A stretch of 64,000 nucleotides of DNA from the NCBI GenBank assembly GCA_030583785.1, contig CP129475.1, positions 768,845 to 832,844 of the forward strand. Reading direction: 5' to 3'. Of this stretch, positions 8,114 to 44,542 are shown one piece after another. Each line of letters starts with the position of its first letter. Position 1 is the stretch's first letter. A model generated the notes under the pieces. That model did not search any database. It saw only the letters and a program-made list of their open reading frames with translations, and was not told the origin of the DNA. This stretch comes from Candidatus Dojkabacteria bacterium. GTDB lineage: Bacteria; Patescibacteriota; Dojkabacteria; B142; OLB20. Both the position numbers and the translations under genes were made by a program.

Positions 8114-8121
8114 CAACATCG

Positions 8122-8823: not shown

Positions 8824-8973
8824 TAATTTTTTTACTTTCTAGAAAGCTCCAAAGTTAATAAAAAGTTAGATTGACAGCGATAAACTACATCTGTTATTTT
8901 GAGTAAATACTTAGTTCATTTTCACTGCCGATCTACTCGAAATAGCATTATCTTAGCTATTAATATTTAGACT

Positions 8974-9999: not shown

Positions 10000-10026
10000 G
10001 AAATTCTATTTAATTTTTAAATTCGA

Positions 10027-10626: not shown

Positions 10627-10635
10627 TAGCAAGAA

Positions 10636-28827: not shown

Positions 28828-29526
28828 ATGTACGAATACGAATTATTTCGATTTCTTGCTAAATGGCGAAAGGCGGGTAAATACCCACCGGCTTCAGCCT
28901 GGCCGGGTTATTTGCAATTCGGCAGTTCCATCTGGGCGACTATTAACAAACTTCACAGCTTTACGGCAACAGATATGCATGAGTACGAGGCAAGTTTTTT
29001 TGCAGAAGGAGAAAAAATCATTACGACAAAACCGATCCGTGGAAGTGAGGCAAGTGTAACAGCGAGCCATTCTTTCCAAGTAAAATATATTCCGGATAAT
29101 GGCAGGGGTGTATATCAAAAACAGGTGATACTTGATGGGTCCGTGATAAATCGCGAGACAGTTTTACCTAACAATGTTCCTCAAGAAATTGTTGCTGGAT
29201 TTTTGTTCAATGTACATACTCACCCTAAGCACTTCAATTCCAATAACGAAGAAACCTATGGATTTTTTTCTCCTGTTGATGTAGGTAGTCTTCTGAAATC
29301 AAAGGCCTACTTAATGGGTCTAGTTACAAGTGAGTTCTGGCTTTGTTGTAAAACGGATAGAGTTATTTCTGAAGTCGGAACCGTTGGTGAAGAAATGTTA
29401 ATGCGTATCACAGAAGAGGCATACTCAGGCAACTCATTTTTAAATGATGTTATTCGCACCGAAATGAAGAACTGGGGACTAATTTTTTATCGGGGTGAGT
29501 TTAACGGCAAACTAATCAGAATCTAA
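28828..29526 (+). CDS. Hypothetical protein with a possible JAB/MPN-like HxH…SxxD metal-binding arrangement
   Basis: NVHTHPKHF…FFSPVD has atypical spacing, so the assignment is weak. Confidence 0.35.
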   Translation: MYEYELFRFLAKWRKAGKYPPASAWPGYLQFGSSIWATINKLHSFTATDMHEYEASFFAEGEKIITTKPIRGSEASVTASHSFQVKYIPDNGRGVYQKQVILDGSVINRETVLPNNVPQEIVAGFLFNVHTHPKHFNSNNEETYGFFSPVDVGSLLKSKAYLMGLVTSEFWLCCKTDRVISEVGTVGEEMLMRITEEAYSGNSFLNDVIRTEMKNWGLIFYRGEFNGKLIRI

Positions 29527-29535
29527 TTCATTTTA

Positions 29536-30342
29536 TTGTCTCGTATGAGCTATAATGCTTACGACATGAAATTACGCAAACAAAAAAATAGCATTGATCT
29601 TCTTAGAGAGCTTATCAAGACAAATCTTAAGCTTAGATACAACGATTCTTTGCTCGGTGTTCTTTGGGTAATGATGAAGCCACTACTCAATTTCTTGGTT
29701 CTGTTTTTTGTCTTTAGCGCATTTAGAGGTGGCGTTGATAAAGAAAATTATGCGGCAAGTCTACTGATTGGATTAATTGTCTATACCTTTATTCAAGAGG
29801 GAATCACTTTTGGTATGAACTCTTTGCTTAGTATGCAGGGAATCATTTTAAAAGTTAACTTTCCAAGAAATCTGGCCGTGCTCAGTGCCGTGCTAGTTTC
29901 TATGATCAACTTCTTTATTAATTTGTTTATCATTTTGCTACTGACTTTGTTTGTCAATTTTGTCCCAAATCCGCTAGGCGTATTGTATTTCTTCCTGATT
30001 ATGCTTGTTATTCTTGTGATCATCTATAGTGCTTCTTTGATTCTTAGCATATTAGTCATTCGCATTCGTGATCTTGAAAACATAGTGCCGATCTTTTTTC
30101 AATTACTCTTTTGGGGATCGGCAATTTTCTACGATATAAATAGCTTGTCCGGCACTGTTGGAGATATAGTTAGACATAATCCAGTTGCCATTTTAATCGA
30201 TGCCTCTAGGCAGGCTCTAATTAACGGTAGCTTTAATTATCTGCACGAGATGGCTTTTCTTGTAGTTGTAGCATTGGTAATGTTTGTAGTTTCTCGTTTG
30301 TTCTTCAATGTAGAAGTTAAAAAAATAGCAGAACATATATAA
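29536..30342 (+). CDS. wzm: ABC-2 type polysaccharide exporter permease (Wzm/TagG-like)
   Basis: Six TM helices with ABC-2 architecture. It is immediately followed by a Wzt-like ATPase with a 1-nt gap. Confidence 0.8.
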   Translation: MSRMSYNAYDMKLRKQKNSIDLLRELIKTNLKLRYNDSLLGVLWVMMKPLLNFLVLFFVFSAFRGGVDKENYAASLLIGLIVYTFIQEGITFGMNSLLSMQGIILKVNFPRNLAVLSAVLVSMINFFINLFIILLLTLFVNFVPNPLGVLYFFLIMLVILVIIYSASLILSILVIRIRDLENIVPIFFQLLFWGSAIFYDINSLSGTVGDIVRHNPVAILIDASRQALINGSFNYLHEMAFLVVVALVMFVVSRLFFNVEVKKIAEHI

Positions 30343-31638
30343 ATGGATAAACCAATAATCGAAGTAAAGAATTTAGACAAGAATTTTGTAATCCCCAGAG
30401 AGAAAAGGGACACATTAAAAAGTTATGTGATTAACCCGTTTAGAAAGATTCCAAAAGAAACATTTCGTGCTCTAAACGATGTTTCGTTTTCTATCAATGC
30501 CGGAGAATTTGTCGGGCTGATTGGCAGAAACGGTAGTGGTAAAAGTACTCTTTTGCAGCTTATTGCAGGAATATATGCACCTACCTCAGGTAGCGTCACG
30601 GTAAGAGGAAGTATTGTTCCTTTTCTACAATTAGGAGTTGGCTTTAACGATAATTTATCCGGAAGAGAGAATGTTTTTCTAAACGGTGCAATACTTGGAA
30701 TGAGTAGAAAATACCTTGAGAAGAAATACGAAGAAATTGTAGATTTTGCAGAGATTGAAGACTTTATGGATCTACAACTGAAAAACTATTCCAGTGGCAT
30801 GCGTGTTAGGTTGGCACTTGCGATTGCTGTCCAAGCAAAAGCTGACATCTATCTGTTAGACGAAGTATTGTCGGTTGGCGATGAATCCTTCCGTCAAAAG
30901 AGTTTAAAGAAGATGCAGGAAATGCTGACCAATGGAGCAACCGTTATGTATGTCAGCCATGGGTTGGAGTCAATCGAGCAAATTTGTTCTAGGGTTATTT
31001 ATCTTGAAGATGGCAAGCTGGCATACGATGGTAATGTTACAGAAGGGTTGTCGAGGTATCGGTTCTCTCTGCTGAACAAAGCTACTAGCAATAATGAGTC
31101 TCGATTCGGAAACGAAAAGAAATCCGAAGAGAAGCCATTAATGGCTGATGTCAATACAGAAAGGATCGAGATTGAAAGCATAATGATTGACGAGAGAGAA
31201 GATGGTTACGAAGTTGAAAGCAATAAGGATTTCTTGTTTAAAGTTAATATTAAGATCCTTGAAGATATTGATGATGATTTCTGGATTGGAGCTATGTTTT
31301 CTAGTGTAGATATACCAACTTCTGATGTTTACGGTTTCAGATATGACAACCTAGAAAAAAAGATACACCCAAAGGCCGGAGATCGATATTCATTTGAAAT
31401 TAAGTCACCTTTTCCTTTTAATCCTGGTAGTTATGTATGTAAATTTAAAATTGGATCACATGTTAAAGTTAAAAGGGCCGCTCATCTGAAAGACATTGAT
31501 TACTATCGTAAGGTGCACACAGAAGAACAGGGATACCTTCTAGCCAAGAGATCCTTCATTATTAACTGCTGTGGTGAAGATCGTAGATACTATTCCTTAA
31601 TTACATCTAAGAGTAGTATTTCCGTTGATAAAAAATAA
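30343..31638 (+). CDS. wzt: ABC transporter ATP-binding protein (Wzt/TagH-like) with a C-terminal extra domain of about 180 aa (putative glycan-terminus-binding domain)
   Basis: Walker A GRNGSGKST, signature YSSGMRVRLALA, and Walker B IYLLDEVLSVGD. The beta-rich C-terminal extension spans residues 250-431. Confidence 0.85.
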   Translation: MDKPIIEVKNLDKNFVIPREKRDTLKSYVINPFRKIPKETFRALNDVSFSINAGEFVGLIGRNGSGKSTLLQLIAGIYAPTSGSVTVRGSIVPFLQLGVGFNDNLSGRENVFLNGAILGMSRKYLEKKYEEIVDFAEIEDFMDLQLKNYSSGMRVRLALAIAVQAKADIYLLDEVLSVGDESFRQKSLKKMQEMLTNGATVMYVSHGLESIEQICSRVIYLEDGKLAYDGNVTEGLSRYRFSLLNKATSNNESRFGNEKKSEEKPLMADVNTERIEIESIMIDEREDGYEVESNKDFLFKVNIKILEDIDDDFWIGAMFSSVDIPTSDVYGFRYDNLEKKIHPKAGDRYSFEIKSPFPFNPGSYVCKFKIGSHVKVKRAAHLKDIDYYRKVHTEEQGYLLAKRSFIINCCGEDRRYYSLITSKSSISVDKK

Positions 31639-31762: not shown

Positions 31763-32899
31763 ATGAATCAGCCTCATGGTGGTGTTCTCATAAATCGCTT
31801 TGCAAATAAAGATAAACTTTCTTTTGATAATATAGCTCTGTCTATCGAGCTCGATGACGATCAGCTTAGTGAGGTTAAAAATATTGCAGTCGGAACATAT
31901 AGTCCATTAAACGGCTACATGAATAAAGATGACTTTGAAAGTGTTCTTGAGAAAGCTAGGTTAACAAACGGAGTACCATGGAGTGTTCCTGTATTTCTGC
32001 CTGTTTCCAAGGTAGATTATCGATGCATAAAAGTTGGTGGTCAGGTATCCTTGCGTTACAAAGGCAAAGATATTGCGCTTATGGAGGTCTCTGATAAATT
32101 TACCTTCGATGCAGAAAAGTATGTAAAAAGTGTTTATGGCACAACAGACCCCAATCACCCTGGAGTGGCGATGATTAATTCGCTAAGTACTTATGTCATC
32201 GGAGGAGAAATCTGGGTGTATGAAGAACTTCCATCCAAGTATCTTGAATTTGATTTACCTCCACAAAAAACGAGAGAGCTATTCGCCGAAAAAGGCTGGA
32301 ATACAGTCGTAGGTTTTCAGACTCGTAATGCAGCCCACCGTGCTCATGAATTCATTCAAAAGATGTGTCTTGAATTTGTTGATGGGTTATTCATTAATCC
32401 AATCATAGGCAAAAAGAAGAGCGGGGATTTTACAGACGAGGTCATCTTAGCTGTCTATAAAATGCTGGTAAGAGATTTTTATCCTGCCAACTCTACTGCT
32501 ATCGGTGTTTATAGTTCGAGAATGCACTATGCTGGTCCCAAAGAGGCAATCTTTCATGCGATAGTTCGAAAAAACTTCGGTTGTACACATTTTATTGTGG
32601 GTAGAGACCATGCCGGCGTGGGCGACTATTACGACAAATTTGCAGCACACAGAATATTCGATGAGTTTGAAGATATCGGAATTGTACCTATGCGAGTAAG
32701 TAATGCCTTCTTTGATAAAAAATCCGATATGTATACGACTCAAAAGGCGTCACCATTCGGACCAGAACATTGGATTTCTCCTAGTGGGACAGAAGTGCGC
32801 AGACTAATCAAAGAAAAAAATTATAAAGACTTGAAGTATATTCTTCGACCAGAAGTTTTGGAAGAAATTCTTAAGTTCAAAGAGCCCTTCGTGTTATAG
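31763..32899 (+). CDS. sat: Sulfate adenylyltransferase (ATP sulfurylase)
   Basis: N-terminal PHGGVLINR and the ATP-sulfurylase motifs QTRNAAHRAHE and GRDHAGVGDYY. Confidence 0.85.
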   Translation: MNQPHGGVLINRFANKDKLSFDNIALSIELDDDQLSEVKNIAVGTYSPLNGYMNKDDFESVLEKARLTNGVPWSVPVFLPVSKVDYRCIKVGGQVSLRYKGKDIALMEVSDKFTFDAEKYVKSVYGTTDPNHPGVAMINSLSTYVIGGEIWVYEELPSKYLEFDLPPQKTRELFAEKGWNTVVGFQTRNAAHRAHEFIQKMCLEFVDGLFINPIIGKKKSGDFTDEVILAVYKMLVRDFYPANSTAIGVYSSRMHYAGPKEAIFHAIVRKNFGCTHFIVGRDHAGVGDYYDKFAAHRIFDEFEDIGIVPMRVSNAFFDKKSDMYTTQKASPFGPEHWISPSGTEVRRLIKEKNYKDLKYILRPEVLEEILKFKEPFVL

Positions 32900-32919
32900 T
32901 AGATTTTTAATGCTTTAAT

Positions 32920-33453
32920 ATGAAGATAAGCAAGCCTTTCTGTCTTTGGTTTACAGGACTTCCTTCATCCGGAAAGACAACAACAGCATTAGCATTGAAA
33001 GATAAATTTACAGAGTCTGGAATAAATATCGTACATCTAGATGGAGATGTGGTTAGAAAGGGATTAAATTCTGACCTCGGTCTTTCTAAAGAAGATAGAG
33101 AAGAAAACAACAGAAGGGTTATTCATGTCTCCGAAATTGTTGTTGGTAGCGGCATTCCTGTAATAAGCTCTTTCATCTCTCCATATAAATCTACTCGAGA
33201 TTTTGCCAAATTAACAATTCCAAATTATATTGAGGTGTTTGTAAATACACCTTTAAAAGAATGTGAGAGACGCGATGTAAAGGGCCTTTACGCAAAAGCT
33301 AGAGCAGGTGAAATAAAAGGGTTAACCGGATACGACGACCCCTACGAAGAGCCTCTTGCTGCAGATATTATTCTGGATACTGTTGACCACGATCTAGAAG
33401 AAAATATGATTCAAATAATTTCCTTTCTAAGACAGCAGAATTTCATTAATTAA
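32920..33453 (+). CDS. cysC: Adenylylsulfate (APS) kinase
   Basis: P-loop FCLWFTGLPSSGKTT and the LDGDVVRKGLNSDLGLSKEDREENNRR motif typical of APS kinase. Confidence 0.85.
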   Translation: MKISKPFCLWFTGLPSSGKTTTALALKDKFTESGINIVHLDGDVVRKGLNSDLGLSKEDREENNRRVIHVSEIVVGSGIPVISSFISPYKSTRDFAKLTIPNYIEVFVNTPLKECERRDVKGLYAKARAGEIKGLTGYDDPYEEPLAADIILDTVDHDLEENMIQIISFLRQQNFIN

Positions 33454-33464
33454 TATCTTAACTA

Positions 33465-34364
33465 TTGAAAATGCAAAAACACATATACCACAAATATGTT
33501 TCAACGGATTACTTCAATATTGCTGTCAATATCTCTCTTCAAAACAATTACTTGTACGTAGAAACCCCAAAGGTCGCTTGTTCAAAGATTAAATCGATTA
33601 TTGAATGTATAGAACTGGGCAGAAACGATGTTTATGAACATAAAAGTCGGGATTTGATCCATCACAGGTCACATGCGCCTCTTCTGTCACCAAGACAAGT
33701 CTTTGACCTTGAGAAATTAATAACTGAAAGGAAAATGTATAAGTTCTGTTTCGTTAGAAATCCATATACAAGGATACTCTCTGCCTATTTGAACAAGATT
33801 GAAGCAAACGAACCTGAGAAATATCAAATACTTTATCAACTGGGTCACCCTGCTGACCTGAACATAAAACTGACATTTCATGAATTCGTAAGCGCCATAT
33901 ATGAGACACCGCTTGCACACCTAGATCCACATTGGAAGCATCAGTATTATTTAACTTATCAAGATGATATTGATTATGATTATGTTGGAAAAATTGAGAA
34001 TTTCCAAAAAGATTTCACTAACATCCTAAAAGTGATAAATAAGCGCAAGCTAGTATTTGACTTAGGTAGCAAGATCAATTCTACAGATACTGATAAGATG
34101 ATGAAGAAGCTCTATACTCGAGAAATTCGAGACATGGTATATAATAAATATCGGATCGATTTTGATTATTTTGAATATTCTCCAGAGCTAAGCGTTTTTC
34201 CCGGTGAGAAGCCAAAAACCTGCGAAATGTTTGTAGATAAAAAAGTTAACGAAGATTATATTGGAGAGAGATATGCAGCACTTAAGGAGGAGATGGAAAC
34301 GATTAATAGTACAAGACCTTGGAAAATGTATAAGAAAGTTAGAAAGACAATATTAAAGCGATAA
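33465..34364 (+). CDS. PAPS-dependent sulfotransferase, carbohydrate-sulfotransferase-like family
   Basis: 5'-PSB-like ETPKVACSKIKS and 3'-PB-like FVRNPYTRILSAY (RxPxxRxxSxY), immediately downstream of sat and cysC. Confidence 0.65.
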   Translation: MKMQKHIYHKYVSTDYFNIAVNISLQNNYLYVETPKVACSKIKSIIECIELGRNDVYEHKSRDLIHHRSHAPLLSPRQVFDLEKLITERKMYKFCFVRNPYTRILSAYLNKIEANEPEKYQILYQLGHPADLNIKLTFHEFVSAIYETPLAHLDPHWKHQYYLTYQDDIDYDYVGKIENFQKDFTNILKVINKRKLVFDLGSKINSTDTDKMMKKLYTREIRDMVYNKYRIDFDYFEYSPELSVFPGEKPKTCEMFVDKKVNEDYIGERYAALKEEMETINSTRPWKMYKKVRKTILKR

Positions 34365-34408: not shown

Positions 34409-37400
34409 ATGGAAAAAACAAAAAAAGCAGCATGGCTGATTGATTATCCCATCAAGGGGTCTGGAGGACATAAAACATTCTTCTACTACATTAATCATCT
34501 GATAGAAATTGGTTACGAAGTCGATGTATATGTCTATGATTTTCTTGGAGTAAATGCTTCACCAGCAACTGACCCGTCTTCACTTGCTGCAGTTGTAGCC
34601 GACTATCTTATCCCTAGTCGGGCAAACTTTTATTATGGTTGGAAACCTAAAGGAGTCTACGATTTCATGTTTGCAACTTGGTTCCCGAATGCACCTGTTG
34701 TAGCTGATTATCCCTACGCAAAGCACAAAATCTTTTTTGAGCAGGAGTACGAACCATTCTTCACCATGATGGGTGATCAAACTATCAAAGCTCAAAATGC
34801 ATATCATCTTGGGCTTACAGGTATAACTATGGGAGGATGGCTAGCAAAAGAGCTGACTGCAAAACATAACATGGAGGCATATCCACTCTATCTGGGAGCC
34901 GACTTAGACTCGTATTACGATAAAGGTCGATTTAGAGATAATGCTGTGTGTTTTATCTATCAGTCTAATAAGCCACGCCGTTGTCCGCAACTTACGATAG
35001 AAACGATAGATGTTTTGCACGCAGTTGATCCAAGCATTCGCATCTATACTTTTGGTGGTGAAGATGTGCCACCTGTTGCCGGAGCTACGCATCAAGGGTT
35101 ATTGCGCATCAAAGACTTGAATAAACTTTATAATCAATGCAAGGTAGGCGTTGCTTACAGCACCACTAATCCTTCAAGAATTCCTTTTGAAATGATGGCT
35201 GCCGGATTACCTGTTGTTGAGCTTTATGCAGATAATAATCTCTACGATATACCTACAAAAGCTGCTTTGCTAGCAAAACCAGATCCATTTGCCGCAGCTA
35301 CTGCTATCTTAAAACTACTCAAAGACGAAAAATTGTGGGCAGAAAAGAGCCGAGGCGGCTTGGAATTTATGCGAACTAAGTCCTTAGACAAATCTGTAAA
35401 AGACTTCGCGAAGATTCTTTCTGATATTACTATCAGCAAGCAGAATCCGAATACCAAGATTGAAAAGCTTTATCTTGATAAACAGATTGATGCAGATCCG
35501 AGGTTGGTAAAGAAATATAATTATGTTAAAGCTACTCATTCAGACTTTCTAAAAACAGGAGATAAGCTCTCCTTTAACGGAAGCCTTACCAGATTCGCAA
35601 AGTATCAGGTCAAAAGAGCAGTAAGCCCGGTGCGTAGTTTCAAATCATTTGTCCTAAATCTTATTCAAAGTACTGTTTCTGTATCTAAGAACCTGATTTC
35701 CAGAGTTAAGCTGGAGCTGTTTATTCTGGGAAATACGAAACTATTCTCAAGCGACATCTTTGATACTTTAGTACGCAGAGAAGTACATCCAGATGAAATT
35801 AAGTTACGCTCAAGCTGGATGATGAAGCTAAAGTTTAACAATTATGCCAAGAGACTCTCAGTTTTAGAGCTCTTTGAACTCCGTAGATCAGTTGAATCAA
35901 AAATCGGGGCAGAGAATGTTGCTCAAGGAAAAGATCATGAATACGAACTTGAACAAGTATTTGAACAAGTATTACGAATAATTACACCAGACAGATCAAA
36001 GTTGTTCTACCAAGATAATGCTCGTCAGCTTGCTGAATGGGAAATGCAACACGAAATGAAGGTACTTTATCCAGATCGATTTGGGCAATCCGTATTTAAA
36101 CGGATTAAGGCCGAAACAAAAATTCTTTTGTCAGATTTCTATATGACTAAAGAGGCGCTGAATAAGATTCTGCCGCTTAAAGATATTCGTAGTGAAATCA
36201 AGCAGATCGTAAGTTCGGCAGACACAAGATTAAATAAAATCAGCGGTAGAGCTTATGATCACCTCCATAGAAGATTTAAGGTTAACCCTTCAGAGCATAA
36301 ACATCTCGGAGACAACAAATGGTCTGATTTCGAGAAACCAGCCAGTATCGGAATTAAATCAGCATTGTTTATAAATCCAAAGGAGGAAGAAAAACGGGCA
36401 GCTCTCAATGAGGCATTTTCTCAAAGACTAAACAAAGAGGGCTTTCCATACAAAGAAGAAATGGAATCTTTACTAAATGAGATCAAAGTCCCAGAAGGAT
36501 ATTCCAAAGAAGAGTCTGAGTTATTCAAGTTGGGTACAAAATATTCCCCGATTTACTTTTTCTATGTTCTTCAGCTTTGGGAAACAGCTTATAAGCTTGG
36601 AATCGAAACAATCCACTACTTCACTCGTGAGGGCATATTCTTTAAAAAGATTCACGATCAGTTCGCCAAACAGTCATTCTTTCCTTTTAAAGAAATTAAG
36701 TCAGATTTAATAGAAGTCAGCAGAATGTCTACTTTTGCAGCCTCTGTAGGTTCTGTTGAATTTTACGAACTTAAAAGAATTTGGAATCAGTACAAATATC
36801 AGTCAATTAATTCTTTTCTCGTTACACTTGGAATTGATCCAGCTCTATTTGCAGAAGATATTCAGAAGTTCAAGATTGATCCCGAAAAAGAGGTTGAAAT
36901 TTGGAAGGTTGCCAAGTATCAGGACTTGTTTGCAGATAAAAATTTCGTCGAAAAATTGCAAGGTATGCTCAATAAGAAAAGAGAGCTTCTTGTTGGATAC
37001 CTACAGCAGAAAGGGATAAGTCAGCAATCCAAGCAGGTACTGGTAAGCGATATAGGTTGGAGAGGCACTATACAAGATAACATTGCCAGAATATTCAATC
37101 AGGTGGACTTTTACGGAGTTTATCTAGGCTATATTCACCCACTAAATAATCAAGAATTTAATACATTCAAACATGCATACGGACCTTACTTTGTGAGTGA
37201 TGCTCCGTACTTTATGCAAATGCTTCATGGTGGAGCAACTTTTGTTGAGATGCTTTCCACTTCCCCTGGCGGAAGCACAATAGGCTATGAACATGCGGAT
37301 AAAAACAAAATTGTTGCCATAAAAGAAATCTCAAAAGTTGAAGACGAGTACATTCACAACAAATATGTTCGATTCTTCCAGGAAGGTGTAATTGCCTCGG

Positions 37401-37834
37401 TGGCAGCCCTTGCAAATTTTACAGACAAACATGCGCTACAGAGTTCCGAGGTGAGGCCTTATGTACTAAGGCTTATGGACGATTTAATCAAAAAGCCGAA
37501 TTACTTGTTTAGTAAGATATTCTTTAATCTTACCTACAGTGAAACATTTGGGGTGGGTGAGTATTTCGACATGAAGAAGAGATCAACCCTGAAAAAACGA
37601 AATCTTGTTCTTGCCGTAATCTCCAAATCAAGAAGAGAAAATATCGAAGAAGCAGTAAATAAATCGCAATGGAAACAGGGGTTCTGGAGATACCAAGATA
37701 GGCTTGGCATATTCAGCGTAGCCAGTAAGGTTTATTATGATTTGCAAAACGCCAGAAATGCTCTTGCTCCAAAAAGAAGGATATTGCAACTATTATCTAA
37801 AGTTGGGAAACTAAAAAAGAAAATACTTGGTTAA
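34409..37834 (+). CDS. Multidomain 1141-aa protein: N-terminal GT-B (GT4-like) glycosyltransferase domain plus about 800 aa of unassigned C-terminal region
   Basis: GT4-type E-x7-E motif IPFEMMAAGLPVVE around residue 255. The rest (…LVSDIGWRGTIQDN…) has no motif I can assign. Confidence 0.5.
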   Translation: MEKTKKAAWLIDYPIKGSGGHKTFFYYINHLIEIGYEVDVYVYDFLGVNASPATDPSSLAAVVADYLIPSRANFYYGWKPKGVYDFMFATWFPNAPVVADYPYAKHKIFFEQEYEPFFTMMGDQTIKAQNAYHLGLTGITMGGWLAKELTAKHNMEAYPLYLGADLDSYYDKGRFRDNAVCFIYQSNKPRRCPQLTIETIDVLHAVDPSIRIYTFGGEDVPPVAGATHQGLLRIKDLNKLYNQCKVGVAYSTTNPSRIPFEMMAAGLPVVELYADNNLYDIPTKAALLAKPDPFAAATAILKLLKDEKLWAEKSRGGLEFMRTKSLDKSVKDFAKILSDITISKQNPNTKIEKLYLDKQIDADPRLVKKYNYVKATHSDFLKTGDKLSFNGSLTRFAKYQVKRAVSPVRSFKSFVLNLIQSTVSVSKNLISRVKLELFILGNTKLFSSDIFDTLVRREVHPDEIKLRSSWMMKLKFNNYAKRLSVLELFELRRSVESKIGAENVAQGKDHEYELEQVFEQVLRIITPDRSKLFYQDNARQLAEWEMQHEMKVLYPDRFGQSVFKRIKAETKILLSDFYMTKEALNKILPLKDIRSEIKQIVSSADTRLNKISGRAYDHLHRRFKVNPSEHKHLGDNKWSDFEKPASIGIKSALFINPKEEEKRAALNEAFSQRLNKEGFPYKEEMESLLNEIKVPEGYSKEESELFKLGTKYSPIYFFYVLQLWETAYKLGIETIHYFTREGIFFKKIHDQFAKQSFFPFKEIKSDLIEVSRMSTFAASVGSVEFYELKRIWNQYKYQSINSFLVTLGIDPALFAEDIQKFKIDPEKEVEIWKVAKYQDLFADKNFVEKLQGMLNKKRELLVGYLQQKGISQQSKQVLVSDIGWRGTIQDNIARIFNQVDFYGVYLGYIHPLNNQEFNTFKHAYGPYFVSDAPYFMQMLHGGATFVEMLSTSPGGSTIGYEHADKNKIVAIKEISKVEDEYIHNKYVRFFQEGVIASVAALANFTDKHALQSSEVRPYVLRLMDDLIKKPNYLFSKIFFNLTYSETFGVGEYFDMKKRSTLKKRNLVLAVISKSRRENIEEAVNKSQWKQGFWRYQDRLGIFSVASKVYYDLQNARNALAPKRRILQLLSKVGKLKKKILG

Positions 37835-37843
37835 ATTAATACC

Positions 37844-38821
37844 TTGAAAATATCAGTCGTCATCAACACCCTAAATAGACCTGAACAGGTTTCCTTGTGC
37901 CTAGAGTCACTTAGACTCCAGACTTATAAGGATTTCGAGGTGATAGTAGTAGATCAGTCACGCAACAGGAGAACAAAAGAAGTCTGTAAGCCTTACAATC
38001 TTAAATACTACCGCATTAAAAAGCGCAATAACCTTTCAATATCCAGAAATTTTGGAATCAACATGGCAGCAGGCGAGATCGTTGCCTTTATCGATGACGA
38101 TGCACAGGCAAAAGAGGACTGGATCGAACGAATTTCAAATCATTTTTTGCAAGATGATAAACCTGGATTCATTGCAGGTAGAGTTATTGATGTCTCAGAC
38201 AGTGAGAATCCCGTTACCCAGTTTCAAAACGGAATTGTTTCTGCCTTCGGCTACAGTGAAGATATCCGCCCCACAGATGAAAAAAGATATCAAAGGGGGC
38301 ATGCAGGGTGGTATGTTCGACCGATGGGTGCAAATATGGTTTTTCAAAAAAAATCTCTAGAAAAAATCGGCGGATTCGATGAATTCTATGAATATATTCA
38401 CGACGAAACAGATGTCGCAGTTCGGGTTATTAAGTCAGGGGATTATGGTTTGTATGATGATTCATTAATTGTTTATCACAACCCAGCTCTTGGTAGAAAC
38501 CGTAAACGCAAAAGATTCAGTACAAATTGGTATGCACTTACAAAAAATAACATATATTTTGCTCTTAAAAATGGATCTGGAATTTTGCCATTAAGGGTTT
38601 TAAGGTCTTTCTGGAGAGTACTTGGAGCTCGCGGACCATTCATTGCTTTGTTCAAGCTATTTTTGCACCGAAAAATTTCAATATTTAGTTACATGTTTGG
38701 AAACATTCGAAGCGGTTTAGGGCTTCTTAAAGGGTTCTTCTGGGGAACGAGAAAAAAGAGGAAGCTTATGAAAGTTACTGAACCATCTGCATATTTATTG
38801 TTTGCAAAAAGACATGGATAA
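37844..38821 (+). CDS. Family 2 glycosyltransferase
   Basis: MKISVVINTLNRPEQV…FEVIVVDQS and the DXD motif FIDDDA. Confidence 0.8.
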   Translation: MKISVVINTLNRPEQVSLCLESLRLQTYKDFEVIVVDQSRNRRTKEVCKPYNLKYYRIKKRNNLSISRNFGINMAAGEIVAFIDDDAQAKEDWIERISNHFLQDDKPGFIAGRVIDVSDSENPVTQFQNGIVSAFGYSEDIRPTDEKRYQRGHAGWYVRPMGANMVFQKKSLEKIGGFDEFYEYIHDETDVAVRVIKSGDYGLYDDSLIVYHNPALGRNRKRKRFSTNWYALTKNNIYFALKNGSGILPLRVLRSFWRVLGARGPFIALFKLFLHRKISIFSYMFGNIRSGLGLLKGFFWGTRKKRKLMKVTEPSAYLLFAKRHG

Positions 38822-39173
38822 ACAAAGTGAAAATGCCAAAATGTTTGTATCTAGAATGAGAGAACTACTAAATGAAGAGGAACTGGGTGGCATGAGAAGA
38901 GAAGATGATCCAGATGTACTAATTCGCGAGTATGTATTGCCCGCTCTTGAATCAAGTAAGAATGTGCTTGCAGATTTGTACCATGACATTCATGGAGGTA
39001 GCGGACCGTTTGCTAAAATCAAACGCATAATAATAACCAAGGTTGCCAACATCTCCAGAAATACTATGGAACGGAGTATGATATCCCAACAGAGATACAA
39101 CGACATGGTTTATACTCTGCTTAAATATTTGTACGAAAAAAACAGTACATCTTCACCCAATAAGAAAAAATGA
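38802..39173 (+). CDS. Hypothetical small cytoplasmic protein, translationally coupled to both flanking GT genes
   Basis: 123-aa ORF that overlaps the GT2 end by 20 nt and overlaps the next start by ATGA. No motif recognised. Confidence 0.35.
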   Translation: MQKDMDKQSENAKMFVSRMRELLNEEELGGMRREDDPDVLIREYVLPALESSKNVLADLYHDIHGGSGPFAKIKRIIITKVANISRNTMERSMISQQRYNDMVYTLLKYLYEKNSTSSPNKKK

Positions 39174-41347
39174 GAATCCAAATTATTGGTCCCTTTGTTT
39201 CCGAATATTCTTTGGCCAGGGTAAATAGGGCAATAGCAGAAAAACTAAGACACGATCATAAAAATATAAAGCTTTCATTCTTCTCTCCAAAATATCTGTC
39301 AGGCAGTGCCGTAACCAAGTCCGATATAAAGAAGTATCCAATCCTGGAGACCCTTGTCGATGATATAGATCAAGAAGCAGATGTTCATCTTTATAGCGCT
39401 TTCCCAAAAAGCACTGCAGACAATTTAGGATTAGAGATGTTGTGTGGAAAAATTAATGCTGCCTTAATTGCATGGGAAGAAAGCGTTTTTCCAGAAAAAT
39501 GGGTGCAAGAAATCAATATGCATCTTGATGCGGTTTTTGCAATTAGTAGCCATGTGGCAAGGATTCTTGAAAGATGCGGGGTAAGAGTGCCAATCAGCAT
39601 ATTAAGCTTAGGCGTTAGCAAAGTTGAAGCCGATAATAATTATAAACTTGACTTACAGACAAGCTTCAATTTCTTGCATATTAGCTCAGGCCATATGCGT
39701 AAGGGCTTAGACTTATTGTTGCAGGCTTTCGTAGAAGAGTTCTCGCAATCTGATGAAGCTGGGCTAATTATCAAAGCACTTCCGAATCCGAATTTTAATG
39801 CCAAAAATTTCATTAAGAGTGCCAAAGGTGTCGAAGGTAGAGTTGTTCTAATTGAGGACAGTAATTTGTCAGATGCTCAAATTGCCAGTCTATATGAATA
39901 TTCTGATTGTGTGGTGCTTCCTGCTCGTGTTGAGGGGTTTAATCTGCCTGCAGCAGAGGCGATGCTCTATGAACGACCTTTAATTACAACTGCCTATAGT
40001 GGTCATTTAGATTTTTGCAATGAAACCAATTCAAGATTACTACCATACACAATTGTGCCTGCAACAGGGTCCCACTTGGCACTACCGGGTTCAAAATGGG
40101 CTGAACCAGATATCTCGGCATTAAAAACCGAGATGAGAAATATTTATAAGAATCGAGAAGTTTTTAATCGTATGGTAGCTAAGGCTAGATCGGATATTAG
40201 CAATTTCACTTGGGATAATACTGCAAGTCGCTTGCTAGAACAACTTCGGCTTTACTTGGCTATCAAAAATGCCGGTTCAATAAAGCTAGACCTAGTAAGT
40301 CCTTTTTATTCTCAAGGTGGGGTTTCGGAGTATTCTGCTGATTTATATCGTTCTTTGCCGAAGAATATTGAAGTCGAGATTCACGCTGATAAAACCAGTT
40401 CACCTACAAATACTTCTGAACCAGTAAAGCGAGATTGGTCTTCAGGGCGTGGCAAACAGCAAGAACTCATGTCGGCCTTGACTGGAAGGGACATAGTTCA
40501 TATTCAATACCATACAGATTTCTTTCCGGTGTCAATTCTAAGAGATTTGATCGCAGTTCCAAGCAAGTGCATATTGACTCTGCATATCTTAACCGCTGAA
40601 ATGACTAACACCGAAACAATTGAAGCCTTTAAAAAGTGCTCAAAGATTTATGTTCATAACCAAAGGGATTTTAATACTCTAGAATCAAAAGGGCTAAAGA
40701 ATATTCAGTTGTTCACGCATGGAATAATAGATTTTCCAGATCACTTAAGGTCAATGCTTAGATCCAGAATCGGGATCTCTGCAACAAAAGTCATTGCCAC
40801 ACATGGGCTTCTTCACGATAGAAAAGGGGTACTTGAGCTGATAGAGGCATTGGCGCTAATAAAATCGCAGATTCCGGATATTTTACTGTTATGTTTGACA
40901 GCGGTCAGCAGTCAATCTCTAAGCTCGCAGAGTATTTTCAAGAAATGTTTGAATCTTATCAGAGAAAGGAATCTTGAAGAAAATGTCATTTTTATTCCAG
41001 ACTATCTTGCTAGAGAAGAAGTATTATTTGGATTACAGATGGCAGATTTAATTGTTCTTCCGTATGCAGAACTACCAGAAGGGTCGAGTGGCGCGATTCG
41101 TACATGCGCTGCTGCCAAGAGACCAATCCTCTGCACAGAGTCAACAATATTTACGGACTTTCCTGCTGCAGAGAGAATTTCTGATAATAATCCAAAAACA
41201 ATTGCGGATGAAGTTATTGCGATGTTAAACGATGAGGGGCCCTTGCACTCGGCTGAAAGCAAGGTAAGACAATTCGTTGCTTCAAACCAATGGAGGAATC
41301 TTTCGTTGGAGTATTTTCGAGACTTAGCTCAAATAAGTGCATCCTGA
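39170..41347 (+). CDS. Tandem double-GT4 glycosyltransferase (two GT-B modules in one polypeptide)
   Basis: Two E-x7-E motifs, EGFNLPAAEAMLYERPLITT and EGSSGAIRTCAAAKRPILCT. This architecture resembles serotype-specifying mannosyltransferase-type polymerases. Confidence 0.75.
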   Translation: MRIQIIGPFVSEYSLARVNRAIAEKLRHDHKNIKLSFFSPKYLSGSAVTKSDIKKYPILETLVDDIDQEADVHLYSAFPKSTADNLGLEMLCGKINAALIAWEESVFPEKWVQEINMHLDAVFAISSHVARILERCGVRVPISILSLGVSKVEADNNYKLDLQTSFNFLHISSGHMRKGLDLLLQAFVEEFSQSDEAGLIIKALPNPNFNAKNFIKSAKGVEGRVVLIEDSNLSDAQIASLYEYSDCVVLPARVEGFNLPAAEAMLYERPLITTAYSGHLDFCNETNSRLLPYTIVPATGSHLALPGSKWAEPDISALKTEMRNIYKNREVFNRMVAKARSDISNFTWDNTASRLLEQLRLYLAIKNAGSIKLDLVSPFYSQGGVSEYSADLYRSLPKNIEVEIHADKTSSPTNTSEPVKRDWSSGRGKQQELMSALTGRDIVHIQYHTDFFPVSILRDLIAVPSKCILTLHILTAEMTNTETIEAFKKCSKIYVHNQRDFNTLESKGLKNIQLFTHGIIDFPDHLRSMLRSRIGISATKVIATHGLLHDRKGVLELIEALALIKSQIPDILLLCLTAVSSQSLSSQSIFKKCLNLIRERNLEENVIFIPDYLAREEVLFGLQMADLIVLPYAELPEGSSGAIRTCAAAKRPILCTESTIFTDFPAAERISDNNPKTIADEVIAMLNDEGPLHSAESKVRQFVASNQWRNLSLEYFRDLAQISAS

Positions 41348-41796
41348 ATTGCTTCTGCATCTTGTTTTTCTGGAGTCTTAAACACCCAAAGTTTGTAAAC
41401 CAAAAAGGTCCAAGATACCTGAAGCCCAGTGACGACGATTTTTGCCGGAACAGGATTAAGAAACACCACATATAGAAGAAATCCAAGGATTGCATTATTC
41501 GTTACATAGTTGAATGAAGCAATACTTACATATCTAAAGAGCTTCTGCTTCTTCTTTTTCCCACCTGCCTTGAATGTCCAGTAATTTGAGGCAAGGAAGT
41601 TAAACACAAGTGATAGAAGCAAAGAGATTACATTTGCAGAAAGCGGGGCGACAGAGAATACAAAAATTAGTGTATTAAAGATTAGAAAATCCAGTCCAAA
41701 CGAAGAAAAACCGACTATCAAATAGCGAACAAAGTTGATTCCCAAGGTTTTTCTTGCTCTGTTAACGAGTCTGGTTATCATAGTTTGCCGAATCAA
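41329..41796 (-). CDS. gtrA: GtrA-family small membrane protein
   Basis: INFVRYLIVGFSSFGLDFLIFNTLIFV and 4 TM helices, adjacent to a GtrB-like GT2. Confidence 0.65.
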   Translation of the reverse strand: MIRQTMITRLVNRARKTLGINFVRYLIVGFSSFGLDFLIFNTLIFVFSVAPLSANVISLLLSLVFNFLASNYWTFKAGGKKKKQKLFRYVSIASFNYVTNNAILGFLLYVVFLNPVPAKIVVTGLQVSWTFLVYKLWVFKTPEKQDAEAIQDALI

Positions 41797-42859
41797 TTAT
41801 TTTGGAAAGCTTGTCTGCGCTTTTTTCCCAGCTGTAGTTGTCAGATAGATAATCCGGGCTGGATTTTGATTTTTTTTCCTTAACCAAAGAAACCAAACCC
41901 GTGCCAATGCTTTCTACACTTTGCTGATTGCAATAACGAACTTTGTCGCCTAAGGTTTCATGAAAGATTGGAATATCTGAAACGAGTAGGGGAAGACCAT
42001 GATAAAGCGCTTCAATCGGAGGAATCCCGAAACCTTCGTAATGGCTAATGTATACAAACGCTTTGGCCTGACTGTAGAGCATTGAAAGATCTTCGTCAGC
42101 AATGTATCCGGCAAGTATAACTTTCTTTTCTAGATTGTTTTCGATTATTGTTTTGTATATCTCCTCAAAATACCAACCTTTTTTGCCAACAATGACTAAT
42201 GGAATATTTAATTGATCCTTGTATTTCGCATATGCTGTAATAAGATTAATGTAGTTTTTTCTGGGTTCTAATGTGCCAACGCTGAGAATGAATTCGGCCG
42301 GCAGGCTTTGAATTAACTCAGATGCAAGGACATCTTTGGAAGACTTGGTTATCCAGGGATTTAGACCTGGGTAGAGGACCTCAATATCATTTCGTTTTTG
42401 TTTTGAATATTCTTCAAGCTCCTTTTTAATTGTATTTGAGACTGTAACGATCTTCCAGGCTTTTTTCATAGCCTTTGACAGAGATCTTTTATACTTAAAT
42501 GCTGCTAAAGCAGGGAAGTAGTTCGGGAATTTCAGGGGCGCGATATCATGCACAAACTGTATTGTTTTTGGGAAATACCAACTAAATGAATGATTTGATG
42601 GAGAAATAAAAATATCTACCGAGTGTTTTTTTGCATGTTTTGCCACGGCTTTAATCCAGCGTTTTCCTGAAAAGGGAAGACTTCTGTTTACTTTTATGAC
42701 AACATTTTTTGTATGTGGGAGAAGCCGAGGAGTTCGTGTATAAACAATGTACTCATTTTTCTTGTCGTGTTCTACGAGTTCGGAGACTAAATTTATAGTG
42801 TATTGACCTATACCTGCAGGAGAGTCTTCGACAGGTGATAAATCTATAGCAATTTTCAT
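41762..42859 (-). CDS. Family 4 glycosyltransferase
   Basis: EGFGIPPIEALYHGLPLLVSD, a GT4 E-x7-E motif. Confidence 0.8.
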   Translation of the reverse strand: MKIAIDLSPVEDSPAGIGQYTINLVSELVEHDKKNEYIVYTRTPRLLPHTKNVVIKVNRSLPFSGKRWIKAVAKHAKKHSVDIFISPSNHSFSWYFPKTIQFVHDIAPLKFPNYFPALAAFKYKRSLSKAMKKAWKIVTVSNTIKKELEEYSKQKRNDIEVLYPGLNPWITKSSKDVLASELIQSLPAEFILSVGTLEPRKNYINLITAYAKYKDQLNIPLVIVGKKGWYFEEIYKTIIENNLEKKVILAGYIADEDLSMLYSQAKAFVYISHYEGFGIPPIEALYHGLPLLVSDIPIFHETLGDKVRYCNQQSVESIGTGLVSLVKEKKSKSSPDYLSDNYSWEKSADKLSKIIDSANYDNQTR

Positions 42860-43548
42860 TTATTAAATCTTAATCTAAGTATCTGACTCATTATATCGAT
42901 TCCATCTTTCAAATTGATTTTCTTTCCGTCTTTTTTGCCTCTGGGGAAATATTCAATATCTAGTTCTTTAATTTTCCATTTCTTTTTTAGGGCTTTTACT
43001 ACCCATTCAATTTCTAGGCCAAATCTTTCAGATTCAATATGCAGAGACTTGAAGCTGTTTAACTTGCAGAGTTTGTATGCGCATAAAGGGTCTTTAATGC
43101 TCCTGCCAAAGCAAATAAACAGCATTATTCTTGTGATAAATCTGGCTAGTTTCGTAACGAAATTCACCTTATCTCTTAGTAGTCTGCTACCTGCAACCAT
43201 ATCCACCTTATCTGTATTTATGATATGAAGCATTCGCAGAATGTCCTGCGGGTCGAGTTCGGAGTCGGCATCTTCAACGATCATGTATTTACCTTTGGCA
43301 TGGGCTGCACCATTAAGAACAGCAGCGCCTTTACCTTTATTTTTGGCATGAAGTATTAGTTTTAGCCTAAGTTCGGGCTGCAGTTTTTTTAATAATTCCC
43401 TACTTCCGTCTGTGGAATAATCATCGATAACGATGATTTCTTTGTCGACATCAAGTTCGTGTATCGTTCTTACAACATGCTCGACCGTCTTTATCTCGTT
43501 CCAGACAGGGATAATGATACTGATTTCAGGTTGTCGAATTTTAAGCAT
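42856..43548 (-). CDS. gtrB: Polyprenyl-phosphate sugar synthase, GT2 (GtrB/DPM1/ArnC-like). The track ORF extends to 43629; an internal start at 43548 avoids overlap with galE.
   Basis: ISIIIPVWNE…IVIDDYSTDGS, the DXD motif VEDADS, and a C-terminal hydrophobic region. Confidence 0.7.
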   Translation of the reverse strand: MLKIRQPEISIIIPVWNEIKTVEHVVRTIHELDVDKEIIVIDDYSTDGSRELLKKLQPELRLKLILHAKNKGKGAAVLNGAAHAKGKYMIVEDADSELDPQDILRMLHIINTDKVDMVAGSRLLRDKVNFVTKLARFITRIMLFICFGRSIKDPLCAYKLCKLNSFKSLHIESERFGLEIEWVVKALKKKWKIKELDIEYFPRGKKDGKKINLKDGIDIMSQILRLRFNK

Positions 43549-44542
43549 AATCGGTTTTTGGTCTTTTTTGTTCCCATTCCCAAGCACTGCTAATGATGTC
43601 TTCGAGATCGTATTTTGCTTTCCAGCCAATCATTTTTTCAATTTTGCTTGGATCTGCAATTAAACTTGCTGAATCCCCTATTCTTCTTGGGGCAACTTCA
43701 TAATTGATTTTTTTGCCTGTAATGGCTTCTGCTGATTGGATTACTTCAAGAATACTTGTTCCTTTGCCTGTACCAATATTGAATACTTCGAAACCCTTGT
43801 TGGCCATGACATAATCTATGCAGGTGGCGTGTGCTTCTGCTAGATCAACGATATGAATATAATCCCTAACGGCTGTTCCGTCAGGAGTATCATAATCGTT
43901 TCCGAAAACCTTCATGACAAAATCGTCTGTAGTTAAGCCATGAAGTAGTCTTGGTATGAGGTGGGTTTCTGGGTTGTGTCGTTCTCCGATAAGGCCGTTA
44001 TAGGAGCCTGCAGGATTGAAGTATCTAAGTGCAACAACATTTACATCGGCAAAATTCGCATAACTTCTAAGAATCTCTTCTGTGACATATTTAGTCATGG
44101 CATAAGGGTTCTCTAAGCTGATTTTGTCAGTTTCTTTAATGGGGACAGATTCAGGTGTGCCGTAAACTGCAGCAGATGACGAGAAGATGAAGTTTTTGTT
44201 CCCGTTAGCGATCAAGGCATCAAATAGAAATTGGCTACCAACAACATTATTATTAACAAAGGCCACTGGTTTTTCAGTTGAAATGCCAACTTCGATAGAT
44301 GCTGCAAAGTGTATAACTGCATCAAAGGTTCGGTTTTCAAGAGCATGTTGCAGTTCTTGCTGGTTTTGAAGTTCGAGCTTTAAAAGTTCAAAATCCCCTG
44401 CTTCAGATCTTAGGGTCTCGAGTATGTCTTCTTTGTGTTTTTGCAGATGATCGAGAATTGTGACTTTATGACCTGCCTTGATTAGTGTCAGTGCAGTATG
44501 TGAGCCTATATAACCCGCTCCTCCTGTGATAAGAATGTTCAT
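43541..44542 (-). CDS. galE: UDP-glucose 4-epimerase
   Basis: MNILITGGAGYIGSH Rossmann motif, YAMTKYVTE (YxxxK), and the SDR extended family. Confidence 0.85.
   Translation of the reverse strand: MNILITGGAGYIGSHTALTLIKAGHKVTILDHLQKHKEDILETLRSEAGDFELLKLELQNQQELQHALENRTFDAVIHFAASIEVGISTEKPVAFVNNNVVGSQFLFDALIANGNKNFIFSSSAAVYGTPESVPIKETDKISLENPYAMTKYVTEEILRSYANFADVNVVALRYFNPAGSYNGLIGERHNPETHLIPRLLHGLTTDDFVMKVFGNDYDTPDGTAVRDYIHIVDLAEAHATCIDYVMANKGFEVFNIGTGKGTSILEVIQSAEAITGKKINYEVAPRRIGDSASLIADPSKIEKMIGWKAKYDLEDIISSAWEWEQKRPKTDYA

Follow-up and report, generated by a model that had tools for sequence, protein, structure and literature searches.

A single-chain fusion of a GT4 glycosyltransferase and a PRP-gPRT module in a Dojkabacteria Wzm/Wzt operon: a probable polymerase of a ribofuranose-containing surface glycan

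The addition of ribofuranose (Ribf) to bacterial surface polysaccharides by a two-domain module, made up of a HAD-type phosphoribose 5-phosphatase (PRP) and a PRPP-dependent glycan phosphoribosyltransferase (gPRT), was described by Kelly et al. (2022, Nat Chem Biol 18:530), as cited in PMC11294581 and PMC11231755, where the mechanism is also described. According to these citing papers, PDB entry 7SHG is the polysaccharide ribofuranosyltransferase of Thermobacillus composti. The module has also been described for Bcs3 (PMC10299916) and Cj1432 (PMC12096443). Bcs3, the capsule polymerase of H. influenzae type b, has the domain order CroT-CrpP-CriT-SH3b (PDB 8A0C/8A0M), and alanine mutants of D386, D680 and E818 are (partially) inactive (PMC10299916). 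Cj1432 of the C. jejuni HS:2 capsule contains a GT4 domain (1-356), a HAD phosphatase (357-573), a PRPP-dependent ribosyltransferase (574-914) and a helical appendage, and has been shown biochemically to carry out three successive reactions in making the repeat (PMC12096443). In K. pneumoniae O4, ORF6 (GT4, UDP-Galp-dependent) and ORF5 (PRPP) alone make [4-alpha-Galp-1,2-beta-Ribf-1]n in vitro (PMC11231755). PRP-gPRT-based polymerase cassettes are widespread, and have been biochemically defined since 2022-2025.

Here we describe such an enzyme encoded in a stretch of 64,000 nucleotides (hereafter the 64-kb window) from a WS6/Dojkabacteria-like host. The open reading frame (ORF) 34409-37834 on the + strand runs through 1141 codons without interruption to its stop, the opposite strand having stops throughout, and its product is laid out as GT4, joint, PRP, gPRT and basic tail. 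A 98% identical protein, likewise of 1141 aa (P0001), is found on 16 contigs; because independent assemblies carry the same ORF, the fusion of GT4 with PRP-gPRT is no assembly artefact. Another Candidatus Dojkabacteria protein (P0002) is 42% identical and colinear across 100% of the query, and the AF2 model of the 1141-aa protein has a mean pLDDT of 85.4. The initial annotation was right that transmembrane segments are absent, the maximum Kyte-Doolittle value over 19-residue windows being 1.15. It had also regarded the C-terminal ~800 aa as uncharacterised, an impression that arises because Pfam and NCBIfam have no above-threshold match in this part: when the whole protein was scanned, WsaF_C alone passed the threshold, and the C-terminal part gave only sub-threshold HAD matches. 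The module looks nameless by domain scan because PRP and gPRT are absent from both collections. The peptides LVSDIGWRGTIQDNIARIF and GVYLGYIHP, quoted in that annotation, are both present in the translation. As detailed below, the protein is two enzymes, mostly encoded elsewhere by adjacent separate genes, in one chain, and all of it is accounted for except the variable basic joint (~383-440) and the basic amphipathic C-terminal helix (~1100-1141).

The PRP domain (35729..36376, + strand; residues 441-656), aligned to Bcs3 CrpP and 7SHG, is a HAD-type phosphatase, and thereby the HAD-like fold that had been proposed for checking is found. Motif I is D449-I-F-D452-T453 (D449 codon 35753-35755), motif II S575-D576, motif III K610 and motif IV G634-D635...D640, and all of these residues are invariant in 14 sequences except I450 and F451 (W or F). 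In 55 homologs of 22-47% identity, a set that includes both fusion orders, D449, T453, S575, D576, K610, G634 and D640 are invariant, while D452 is Asp in 49 of the 55 (Ser in six) and D635 in 53 (Asn in two). Position 451 is Phe or Trp and never Asp, which matches the description of CrpP (PMC10299916); like Bcs3, whose corresponding nucleophile is D386, the domain keeps only the first Asp of motif I together with motifs II-IV. D449 aligns with the Asp of FDIFDT in Bcs3, and K610 corresponds to Bcs3 K548.

The gPRT domain (36377..37705, + strand; residues 657-1099) has a PRTase-like core plus helical bundles, and the HAD-fold phosphatase lies directly N-terminal to it, as in other members of the PRP-gPRT family. 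Its two catalytic acids are E741 in R740-E741-G742 (codon 36629-36631) and D881 in VSDIGWRGTIQD (codon 37049-37051), the latter peptide having been quoted in the initial annotation among the unexplained sequence; a further conserved motif lies near the C-terminus of the domain, around W1088. R740-E741-G742, D881, G883, W884 and G886 are invariant in the same 55 homologs. E741 (R-E-G) aligns with Bcs3 D680, and D881 (VSDIGWRG) with Bcs3 E818 once the register of the HMMER alignment is moved manually by one column, so that equivalents of both Bcs3 acids are present, although the residues are exchanged, D680 and E818 in Bcs3 versus E741 and D881 here; 7SHG has the same E and D as the present protein. 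With every catalytic residue intact, a pseudo-enzyme is ruled out. Residues 448-1058 align to the solved 7SHG at E 2.4e-41, and residues 441-1099 match a stand-alone PRP-gPRT protein of Klebsiella type with 33% identity over 670 aa (E 4e-106). In contrast to the protein described here, 7SHG is a stand-alone 648-aa protein without GT4, the match to it stops at 1058, before the conserved W1088 motif, and its two domains are oriented differently to each other, the rmsd across the whole module being 6.5-8.5 A. About 660 of the C-terminal 800 residues are accounted for by PRP and gPRT with intact catalytic residues. Judged by these alignments, the C-terminal ~800 aa represent the described ribofuranose-adding module, which would transfer Ribf-5-P from PRPP to a glycan and then remove the 5-phosphate, and the proposal of a novel module does not survive, residues 340-1141 essentially resolving into known domains.

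Among described multi-enzyme polymerases of ABC-transporter-dependent pathways, Bcs3 likewise has a central HAD phosphatase and a C-terminal PRPP-dependent ribofuranosyltransferase; however, its N-terminal partner is a TagF-like ribitol-phosphate transferase rather than a GT4, and its SH3b polymer-binding domain is absent here. Cj1432, compared by its published description, is closer in layout, with the order GT4-HAD-gPRT in one polypeptide and a helical C-terminal appendage. It differs in that its GT4 transfers GlcA and its trisaccharide repeat needs a second enzyme (PMC12096443), and in that it ends in a four-helix bundle, whereas the present protein ends in a single basic helix. In the comparison with K. 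pneumoniae O4, both halves are homologous to a Klebsiella-type pair: identity is 36% (E 1e-70) between the GT4 half and P0138, and 33% (E 4e-106) between the C-terminal half and the 676-aa product of the gene adjacent to that of P0138. P0138, whose cluster includes K. pneumoniae proteins, was found via a Pantoea GT4 homolog and the members of the cluster, and the order of its locus, GT4-wzm-wzt-705 aa-GT4-676 aa, matches the six-gene O4 cluster orf10-wzm-wzt-orf7-orf6-orf5; by species names and gene order, P0138 and L082 are the probable counterparts of K. pneumoniae O4 ORF6 and ORF5. The O4 pair shares with our locus the position of GT4 before PRP-gPRT and the wzm/wzt setting. Unlike the O4 pair, the two enzymes are here joined in one chain via the variable basic joint, with an extra basic C-terminal helix, in a host that synteny and the 42% identity place near WS6/Dojkabacteria and that is not an enterobacterium; homologs of the O4 alpha-Kdo terminator ORF7 and of ORF10 are absent from the window, which holds PAPS and sulfotransferase genes instead. 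Literature descriptions of E. coli Ribf O antigens do not include these genes.

The pairing of the two enzymes extends well beyond these systems. Of 79 related genome loci, 67 have a WsaF-like GT4 gene immediately before a separate PRP-gPRT gene, with a gap of at most 30 nt or an overlap in 53 of the 67, and six have the two fused; fusions are known in both orders. This adjacency and fusion indicate that GT4 and PRP-gPRT are functionally coupled. The PRP-gPRT module itself has 1741 cluster representatives at E <= 1e-10. Species-representative genomes contain at least 579 matching stretches, mostly two adjacent genes at the ORF level rather than fused full-length homologs. A Wzt homolog is found within 8 kb in about 50 of the 79 loci, and the GT4/PRP-gPRT pair forms their conserved core, while the accompanying glycosyltransferases vary.

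WsaF is a GT4 rhamnosyltransferase of S-layer glycan synthesis in Geobacillus stearothermophilus (PDB 2X0D/E/F). The N-terminal domain of our protein (34409..35431, + strand; residues 1-341) belongs to the same WsaF-like, retaining GT4 type: it has a GT-B fold, scores above threshold with the WsaF_C family model, and carries in its C-terminal Rossmann domain the E-x7-E motif EMMAAGLPVVE at residues 261-271, in which E261 (codon 35189-35191) is invariant in 14 aligned sequences, so that the initial assignment of this part stands. Identity to WsaF itself is ~15-16%; a PDB search with residues 1-443 as a single sequence gave no match, and WsaF was reached only with a profile. Since identity to characterised enzymes is only 23-36%, the sequence of the GT4 half does not reveal which donor and acceptor it uses. 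Our best guess by analogy is that it adds alpha-Gal from UDP-Gal, a guess based on its homology to the partner enzyme of K. pneumoniae O4 type and on a nearby GalE, a UDP-glucose 4-epimerase (43541..44542, - strand; NCBIfam TIGR01179, 379.5 bits against a cutoff of 262.3) encoded 6 kb downstream of the polymerase gene, which could supply UDP-Gal to this domain. The same three-domain enzyme might instead use dTDP-L-Rha, as WsaF does, and build a Rha-Ribf rather than a Gal-Ribf repeat. Ribf is combined with Rha in K. pneumoniae O7 (PMC11231755), homologs carry the database name 'rhamnosyltransferase WsaF family' in accordance with the sole Pfam match, RmlB (TIGR01181, 508.8 bits) is encoded near the cassette in 13 of the 79 loci, and RMNT_CmcI (rhamnosyl O-methyltransferase family) genes are nearby in 18. 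The family label, however, does not fix the donor, because the Klebsiella O4-type GT4, the closest homolog linked to experiment, bears the same label and is reported as UDP-Galp-dependent; moreover, the low identity to WsaF speaks against a shared donor, and the 64-kb window is without rml genes, yet has GalE close by. We consider rhamnose a somewhat unlikely donor, and going by the Klebsiella homolog, UDP-Gal is preferred.

In E. coli O9a, WbdA is the polymerase and WbdD a coiled-coil kinase-methyltransferase that acts as the terminator. The initial annotation had placed our protein in a Wzt-dependent setting, which is confirmed by Pfam matches of Wzm and Wzt in the same operon, and had suggested a polymerase or a terminator of the WbdA/WbdD kind. 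The former part of the suggestion holds in a general sense, as a soluble polymerase of several modules that works at the membrane as part of a Wzm/Wzt pathway; the protein is in neither family, having no second GT4 mannosyltransferase module and no kinase, methyltransferase or conserved coiled coil. Most probably, it is a single-chain polymerase module with three activities in an ABC-transporter-dependent surface-glycan pathway, fusing enzymes usually encoded by adjacent genes. In the cycle we propose, gPRT would move ribofuranose-5-phosphate from PRPP to the non-reducing-end sugar of a lipid-linked chain; the PRP domain, with D449 as nucleophile, would take off the 5-phosphate; and the retaining GT4 would put a hexose from an NDP-sugar on the new ribofuranose, which would regenerate the acceptor of the first step. 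Processive repetition of this cycle at the cytoplasmic face would yield a [sugar-Ribf]n polymer of disaccharide repeats, which would then probably be sulfated by the neighbouring sulfotransferase and exported via Wzm/Wzt.

That the C-terminal 800 aa form a novel WbdD-type terminator or chain-length ruler is highly improbable, since most of them are taken up by the two catalytic domains, and Pfam, NCBIfam and PDB searches found no terminating kinase, methyltransferase or Kdo-transferase domain. Such a function would fit the setting of the gene, a Wzm/Wzt operon in which Wzt may carry a carbohydrate-binding domain, and two long helices, 394-439 and 1101-1140, are predicted in the protein; in other lineages, however, the cassette comes with a methyltransferase that is separate and ends in a long helix-like tail. 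A coiled-coil ruler made of these two helices was ruled out by their low confidence and their lack of conservation in length and sequence. The first helix lies in the region comprising the C-terminal tail of the GT4 unit (an alignment with a stand-alone GT4 homolog reaches residue ~382) and the fusion joint (35432..35728, + strand; residues 342-440), which shows no conservation and large length variation, carries a net charge of +12, has pLDDT values of 34-46 for residues 376-427, and contains the position at which the gene boundary of split loci falls. The second (37706..37831, + strand; residues 1100-1141) is a basic amphipathic helix not alignable among homologs, with 41 residues from 1101, a net charge of +9, a pLDDT of ~45-60 and a hydrophobic moment of 0.67 against a protein-wide maximum of 0.68; it is a candidate tail for membrane or partner binding. 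In the polymerase proposed here, the basic joint and this helix would probably keep the soluble enzyme at the membrane.

The genes around the polymerase, all on the + strand, begin with Wzm (29536-30342; Pfam ABC2_membrane) and Wzt (30343-31638; Pfam ABC_tran), whose C-terminal extension is weakly similar to Wzt_C (E 2.4e-4, below the cutoff), a carbohydrate-binding domain more clearly recognised in the orthologous loci L001 and L021. These are followed by Pfam-identified ATP sulfurylase (31763-32899), APS kinase (32920-33453) and, directly upstream of the polymerase gene, a Sulfotransfer_2 sulfotransferase (33465-34364). Downstream are a GT2 (37844-38821), a 123-aa ORF (38802-39173) and a dual-GT4 protein of 725 aa (39170-41347), the GT2 and the dual GT4 identified by Pfam and all three conserved in L001 and L021. 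A promoter and terminator scan of the operon gave a result no better than shuffles, and genes for an initiating phosphoglycosyltransferase, a PRPP synthetase or a lipid carrier were not seen across the 64-kb window. Related loci from other lineages have, alongside the cassette, a separate methyltransferase whose long helix-like tail, rich in alanine, arginine and glutamate, was judged by eye to be coiled coil.

The GT2, the 123-aa ORF and the dual-GT4 protein are candidates for primer or adaptor synthesis, and the GT2 and dual GT4 could also have a part in building the repeat unit, in which case a repeat longer than a disaccharide is conceivable. The presence of three further GT modules in the operon permits the converse arrangement, in which the GT2 and dual GT4 build the repeat and our protein adds just a single sugar-Ribf unit, as an adaptor between primer and polymer or as a non-reducing-end cap; a Ribf-GT of Salmonella T1 indeed starts a second glycan domain atop galactan (PMC11294581). 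We regard this as quite improbable, since it is the GT4/PRP-gPRT pair that is conserved among loci in which the other GTs change, since the homologous O4 pair polymerises alone in vitro (PMC11231755), and since recurrent fusion in either order is expected of enzymes that alternate on one chain end. A polymerase therefore remains the preferred reading.

The absence of a gPRT model from Pfam and NCBIfam, where PRP gives only sub-threshold HAD matches, is an annotation gap: such enzymes end up under the names 'HAD family hydrolase', 'hypothetical protein' or 'WsaF rhamnosyltransferase'. A family model for PRP-gPRT would clear many false leads of apparent dark matter. The neighbouring PAPS and sulfotransferase genes are a more interesting feature than the polymerase ORF itself. 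The locus predicts a ribofuranose-containing, probably sulfated, Wzm/Wzt-exported surface glycan in a Candidate Phyla Radiation (CPR) bacterium, a testable statement on the poorly known cell envelope of this group. [quoted passage not shown] Searching the literature for ABC-transporter-dependent pathways in which sulfate serves as a terminator gave no relevant result. The idea is suggested by the methyltransferases with long helix-like tails that other lineages have at the corresponding position, by the missing homolog of the O4 Kdo terminator in the window, and by the finding that PAPS genes and 1-4 sulfotransferases go with the cassette only in WS6/Dojkabacteria loci, two others of which carry PAPS genes and 2-4 sulfotransferases. 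One sister locus encodes four different sulfotransferases, which points to multi-site decoration instead of a terminator.

The open reading frame (ORF) at 34409-37834 (+) is a real one and carries an N-terminal GT4 domain, as the initial annotation had stated; the remaining ~800 aa of its product, which had been described as uncharacterised, are for the most part a PRP-gPRT module with aligned catalytic residues. In the literature, the N-terminal part of this module is a HAD-type phosphoribose phosphatase (PRP; CrpP in Bcs3, the H. influenzae type b capsule polymerase), and the C-terminal part is a PRTase-like glycan phosphoribosyltransferase (gPRT; CriT), which uses PRPP as the donor to place Ribf-5-P on a sugar acceptor; the PRP then removes the 5-phosphate (PMC11294581; PMC11231755; PMC10299916). 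The Bcs3 nucleophile D386 is aligned with D449 of the window protein, located within SSDIFDT. The DxD motif retains just its first Asp, a feature also reported for CrpP of Bcs3, and has F or W at position 451 in 55 of 55 homologs. HAD motifs II-IV are represented by S575-D576, K610 (equivalent to Bcs3 K548) and G634-D635...D640. In the gPRT domain, E741 (R-E-G) is placed opposite Bcs3 D680 by the alignment, and D881 (VSDIGWRGTIQD) opposite Bcs3 E818 in a HMMER alignment whose register was shifted by one column by hand; 7SHG, the Thermobacillus composti ribofuranosyltransferase, carries the same Glu and Asp. It has been shown that alanine mutants of Bcs3 at D386, D680 and E818 are (partially) inactive (PMC10299916). 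Nearly all these catalytic positions are invariant in the 55 homologs (22-47% identity), D635 being Asp in 53 of them. As D881 lies in the peptide that had been quoted as unexplained, this peptide is the active-site motif of the gPRT. The conserved stretch extends to W1088 in the same 55 homologs, and a stand-alone homolog can be aligned as far as residue ~1099. The window protein is an example of an annotation gap, its kind of module being already known.

Two independent lines of evidence link the protein to characterised enzymes. The GT4 of a Pantoea cassette led to P0138, a Klebsiella-type GT4 homolog of 396 aa, whose 90% cluster contains many K. pneumoniae entries with the name 'WsaF family glycosyltransferase'. 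The gene order at the P0138 locus, i.e. GT4 (381 aa), wzm, wzt (with Wzt_C), a 705-aa protein, P0138 and a 676-aa protein (the 705-aa and 676-aa products have no Pfam match), is the same as in the O4 cluster of K. pneumoniae, whose six genes are orf10-wzm-wzt-orf7-orf6-orf5. ORF6 of that cluster is a CAZy GT4 enzyme using UDP-Galp as the donor and beta-Ribf as the acceptor, ORF5 is a PRPP-dependent Ribf-GT, and in vitro the pair builds the [Galp-Ribf] repeat polymer (PMC11231755). Names and gene order, rather than a comparison with LT174605, suggest that P0138 is ORF6. Over 336 aa, the window GT4 domain and P0138 share 36% identity (E 1e-70), and residues 441-1099 show 33% identity to its 676-aa neighbour over 670 aa (E 4e-106). 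The other line of evidence is Cj1432 of C. jejuni, which has the same linear architecture as the window protein, with a GT4 (1-356), a HAD (357-573) and a gPRT (574-914) domain followed by a helical C-terminal appendage, and has been shown to catalyse three successive reactions in building the capsule repeat (PMC12096443).

When residues 441-1060 were used for an exhaustive HMMER search, the cluster representatives numbered 4555 with E <= 1e-3, 1741 with E <= 1e-10 and 343 with E <= 1e-30; among the best 150 matches, 46 are multidomain proteins of at least 1000 aa, and most of the rest stand alone, with lengths of 620-800 aa. WsaF-like GT4 and PRP-gPRT occur fused in both orders in the protein database, GT4-PRP-gPRT as in the window and PRP-gPRT-GT4. 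A genome scan found at least 579 matching stretches in species-representative genomes, the best 79 loci of which were taken into the ORF-level analysis. A separate GT4 gene lies immediately upstream of the PRP-gPRT gene in 67 of the 79, with a gap of at most 30 nt or an overlap in 53 of these 67; the cassette is fused in six loci, and another six have one part only. As most loci are split and some fused, the window protein represents the fused form of a conserved cassette of two genes, whose range comprises Planctomycetota, Alpha-, Beta- and Gammaproteobacteria, Firmicutes and CPR. The joint of the window protein (residues ~383-440) coincides with the gene boundary of the split loci; it has a basic character (net +12 for residues 341-440), varies in length, cannot be aligned and was modelled with low confidence. 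The fused form is also found in L001, a Dojkabacteria MAG whose flanking genes, too, are syntenic with the window, so that the window is tentatively placed in this CPR lineage, whereas in L021 (WS6 bacterium OLB20; 7983-11416) the homolog consists of two ORFs in different frames, a 490-aa GT4 and a 642-aa PRP-gPRT ~30 nt apart, which points to either fusion or fission within the lineage or a frameshift in the MAG.

We propose that the gPRT domain would extend the chain end by Ribf-5-P taken from PRPP, that the PRP domain would take the 5-phosphate off the added ribofuranose, and that the GT4 domain would then add a hexose to it, restoring the gPRT acceptor. By alternating, these steps would build a polymer of disaccharide repeats, carried on a lipid at the cytoplasmic face and then exported via Wzm/Wzt. 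Of the earlier proposal of a novel polymerase or a terminator or ruler of a Wzm/Wzt pathway, the polymerase and the pathway are retained, while novelty and the roles of ruler and terminator are not. The second sugar is uncertain; the Klebsiella homolog, together with a GalE gene 6 kb from the polymerase gene (TIGR01179, 379.5 bits), favours UDP-Gal as the putative GT4 donor. A dTDP-Rha donor is possible, given the WsaF family label of the GT4 and the RmlB and rhamnosyl-O-methyltransferase-family genes close to some homologs, but a search of the 64-kb window found no rml genes. The C-terminal ~42 residues are predicted to form a basic helix (1101-1141, net +9) for which membrane binding is plausible; its hydrophobic moment is 0.67, and the highest value anywhere in the protein is 0.68.

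The gene lies in an operon in the order of Wzm, Wzt, ATP sulfurylase, APS kinase, sulfotransferase, window protein, GT2, a conserved 123-aa ORF and a dual-GT4 protein, an arrangement that recurs in L001 (with four sulfotransferases) and L021 (with two). The 123-aa ORF (38802-39173, +), without a family match, overlaps the end of the GT2 gene and holds the same position in both relatives. Just upstream of wzm, and kept there in both, is a gene for a 232-aa protein (28828-29526, +) without a Pfam or NCBIfam match, whose H-T-H-P-K-H...S-P-V-D is by eye akin to the JAMM/MPN metalloprotease motif. Abutting the operon is a convergent set (41329-43629, -) of a GtrA-like membrane protein, a GT4 and a DPM-synthase-like GT2, all with homologs in L021, which resembles polyprenyl-phosphate-sugar systems for extracytoplasmic glycan modification.

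The ATP sulfurylase, APS kinase and Sulfotransfer_2 genes (31763-34364, +) lie inside the operon directly upstream of the polymerase, and predict a sulfated surface glycan in this CPR lineage. The corresponding regions of L001 (4621-10004) and L021 (3263-7174) keep the PAPS genes, with sulfotransferases of other Pfam families (Sulfotransfer_1/3); the remaining 76 related loci all lack PAPS genes. Since they are confined to the WS6/Dojkabacteria loci, and since homology comparison revealed no O4 Kdo terminator homolog in the window, sulfate might serve as the chain cap in this lineage; nothing relevant to such a role was found in the literature. Plain decoration fits equally well, and the several sulfotransferases in one sister locus speak for it. 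The sulfation genes are a modest lead. The C-terminal extension of Wzt (residues ~270-431; gene at 30343-31638, +) bears on this question, as a Wzt carbohydrate-binding domain would imply that a capped chain end is needed for export; here the match to Wzt_C is weak (E 2.4e-4; its 21.6 bits fall short of the 30.4-bit cutoff), that of the L001 and L021 orthologs is clearer (31.1 bits in L021), and the Klebsiella-type Wzt can be aligned over the ATPase part only.

Wzt homologs lie beside the cassette in ~50 of the 79 loci and Wzm in ~48. Outside the WS6/Dojkabacteria lineage the cassette has other companions. In 27 of the 79 loci there is a methyltransferase (Methyltransf_24) with a long helix-like tail rich in alanine, arginine and glutamate, a putative coiled coil by eye, and by eye these proteins look like a WbdD-type terminator/ruler. 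Further methyltransferases occur in 18-19 of the 79 loci (RMNT_CmcI-family ones in 18), and among L002-L080 a GT2 with a helix-like tail is present in 24 loci and RmlB in 13; examples of neighbour genes are found at L035 6415-7947, L061 4119-5405 and L027 11798-12376.

Elsewhere in the window, a 1350-aa ORF (21694-25746, -), which from its translation looks like an isoleucyl-tRNA synthetase, greatly exceeds the usual length of the bacterial enzymes and has a large internal insertion. Two adjoining genes at 44554-47612 (-) resemble ATP-citrate lyase subunits (Citrate_bind, Citrate_synth_N ATP-grasp, CoA-ligase and citrate synthase C-terminal domain), which is unexpected in a genome otherwise of reduced CPR appearance.
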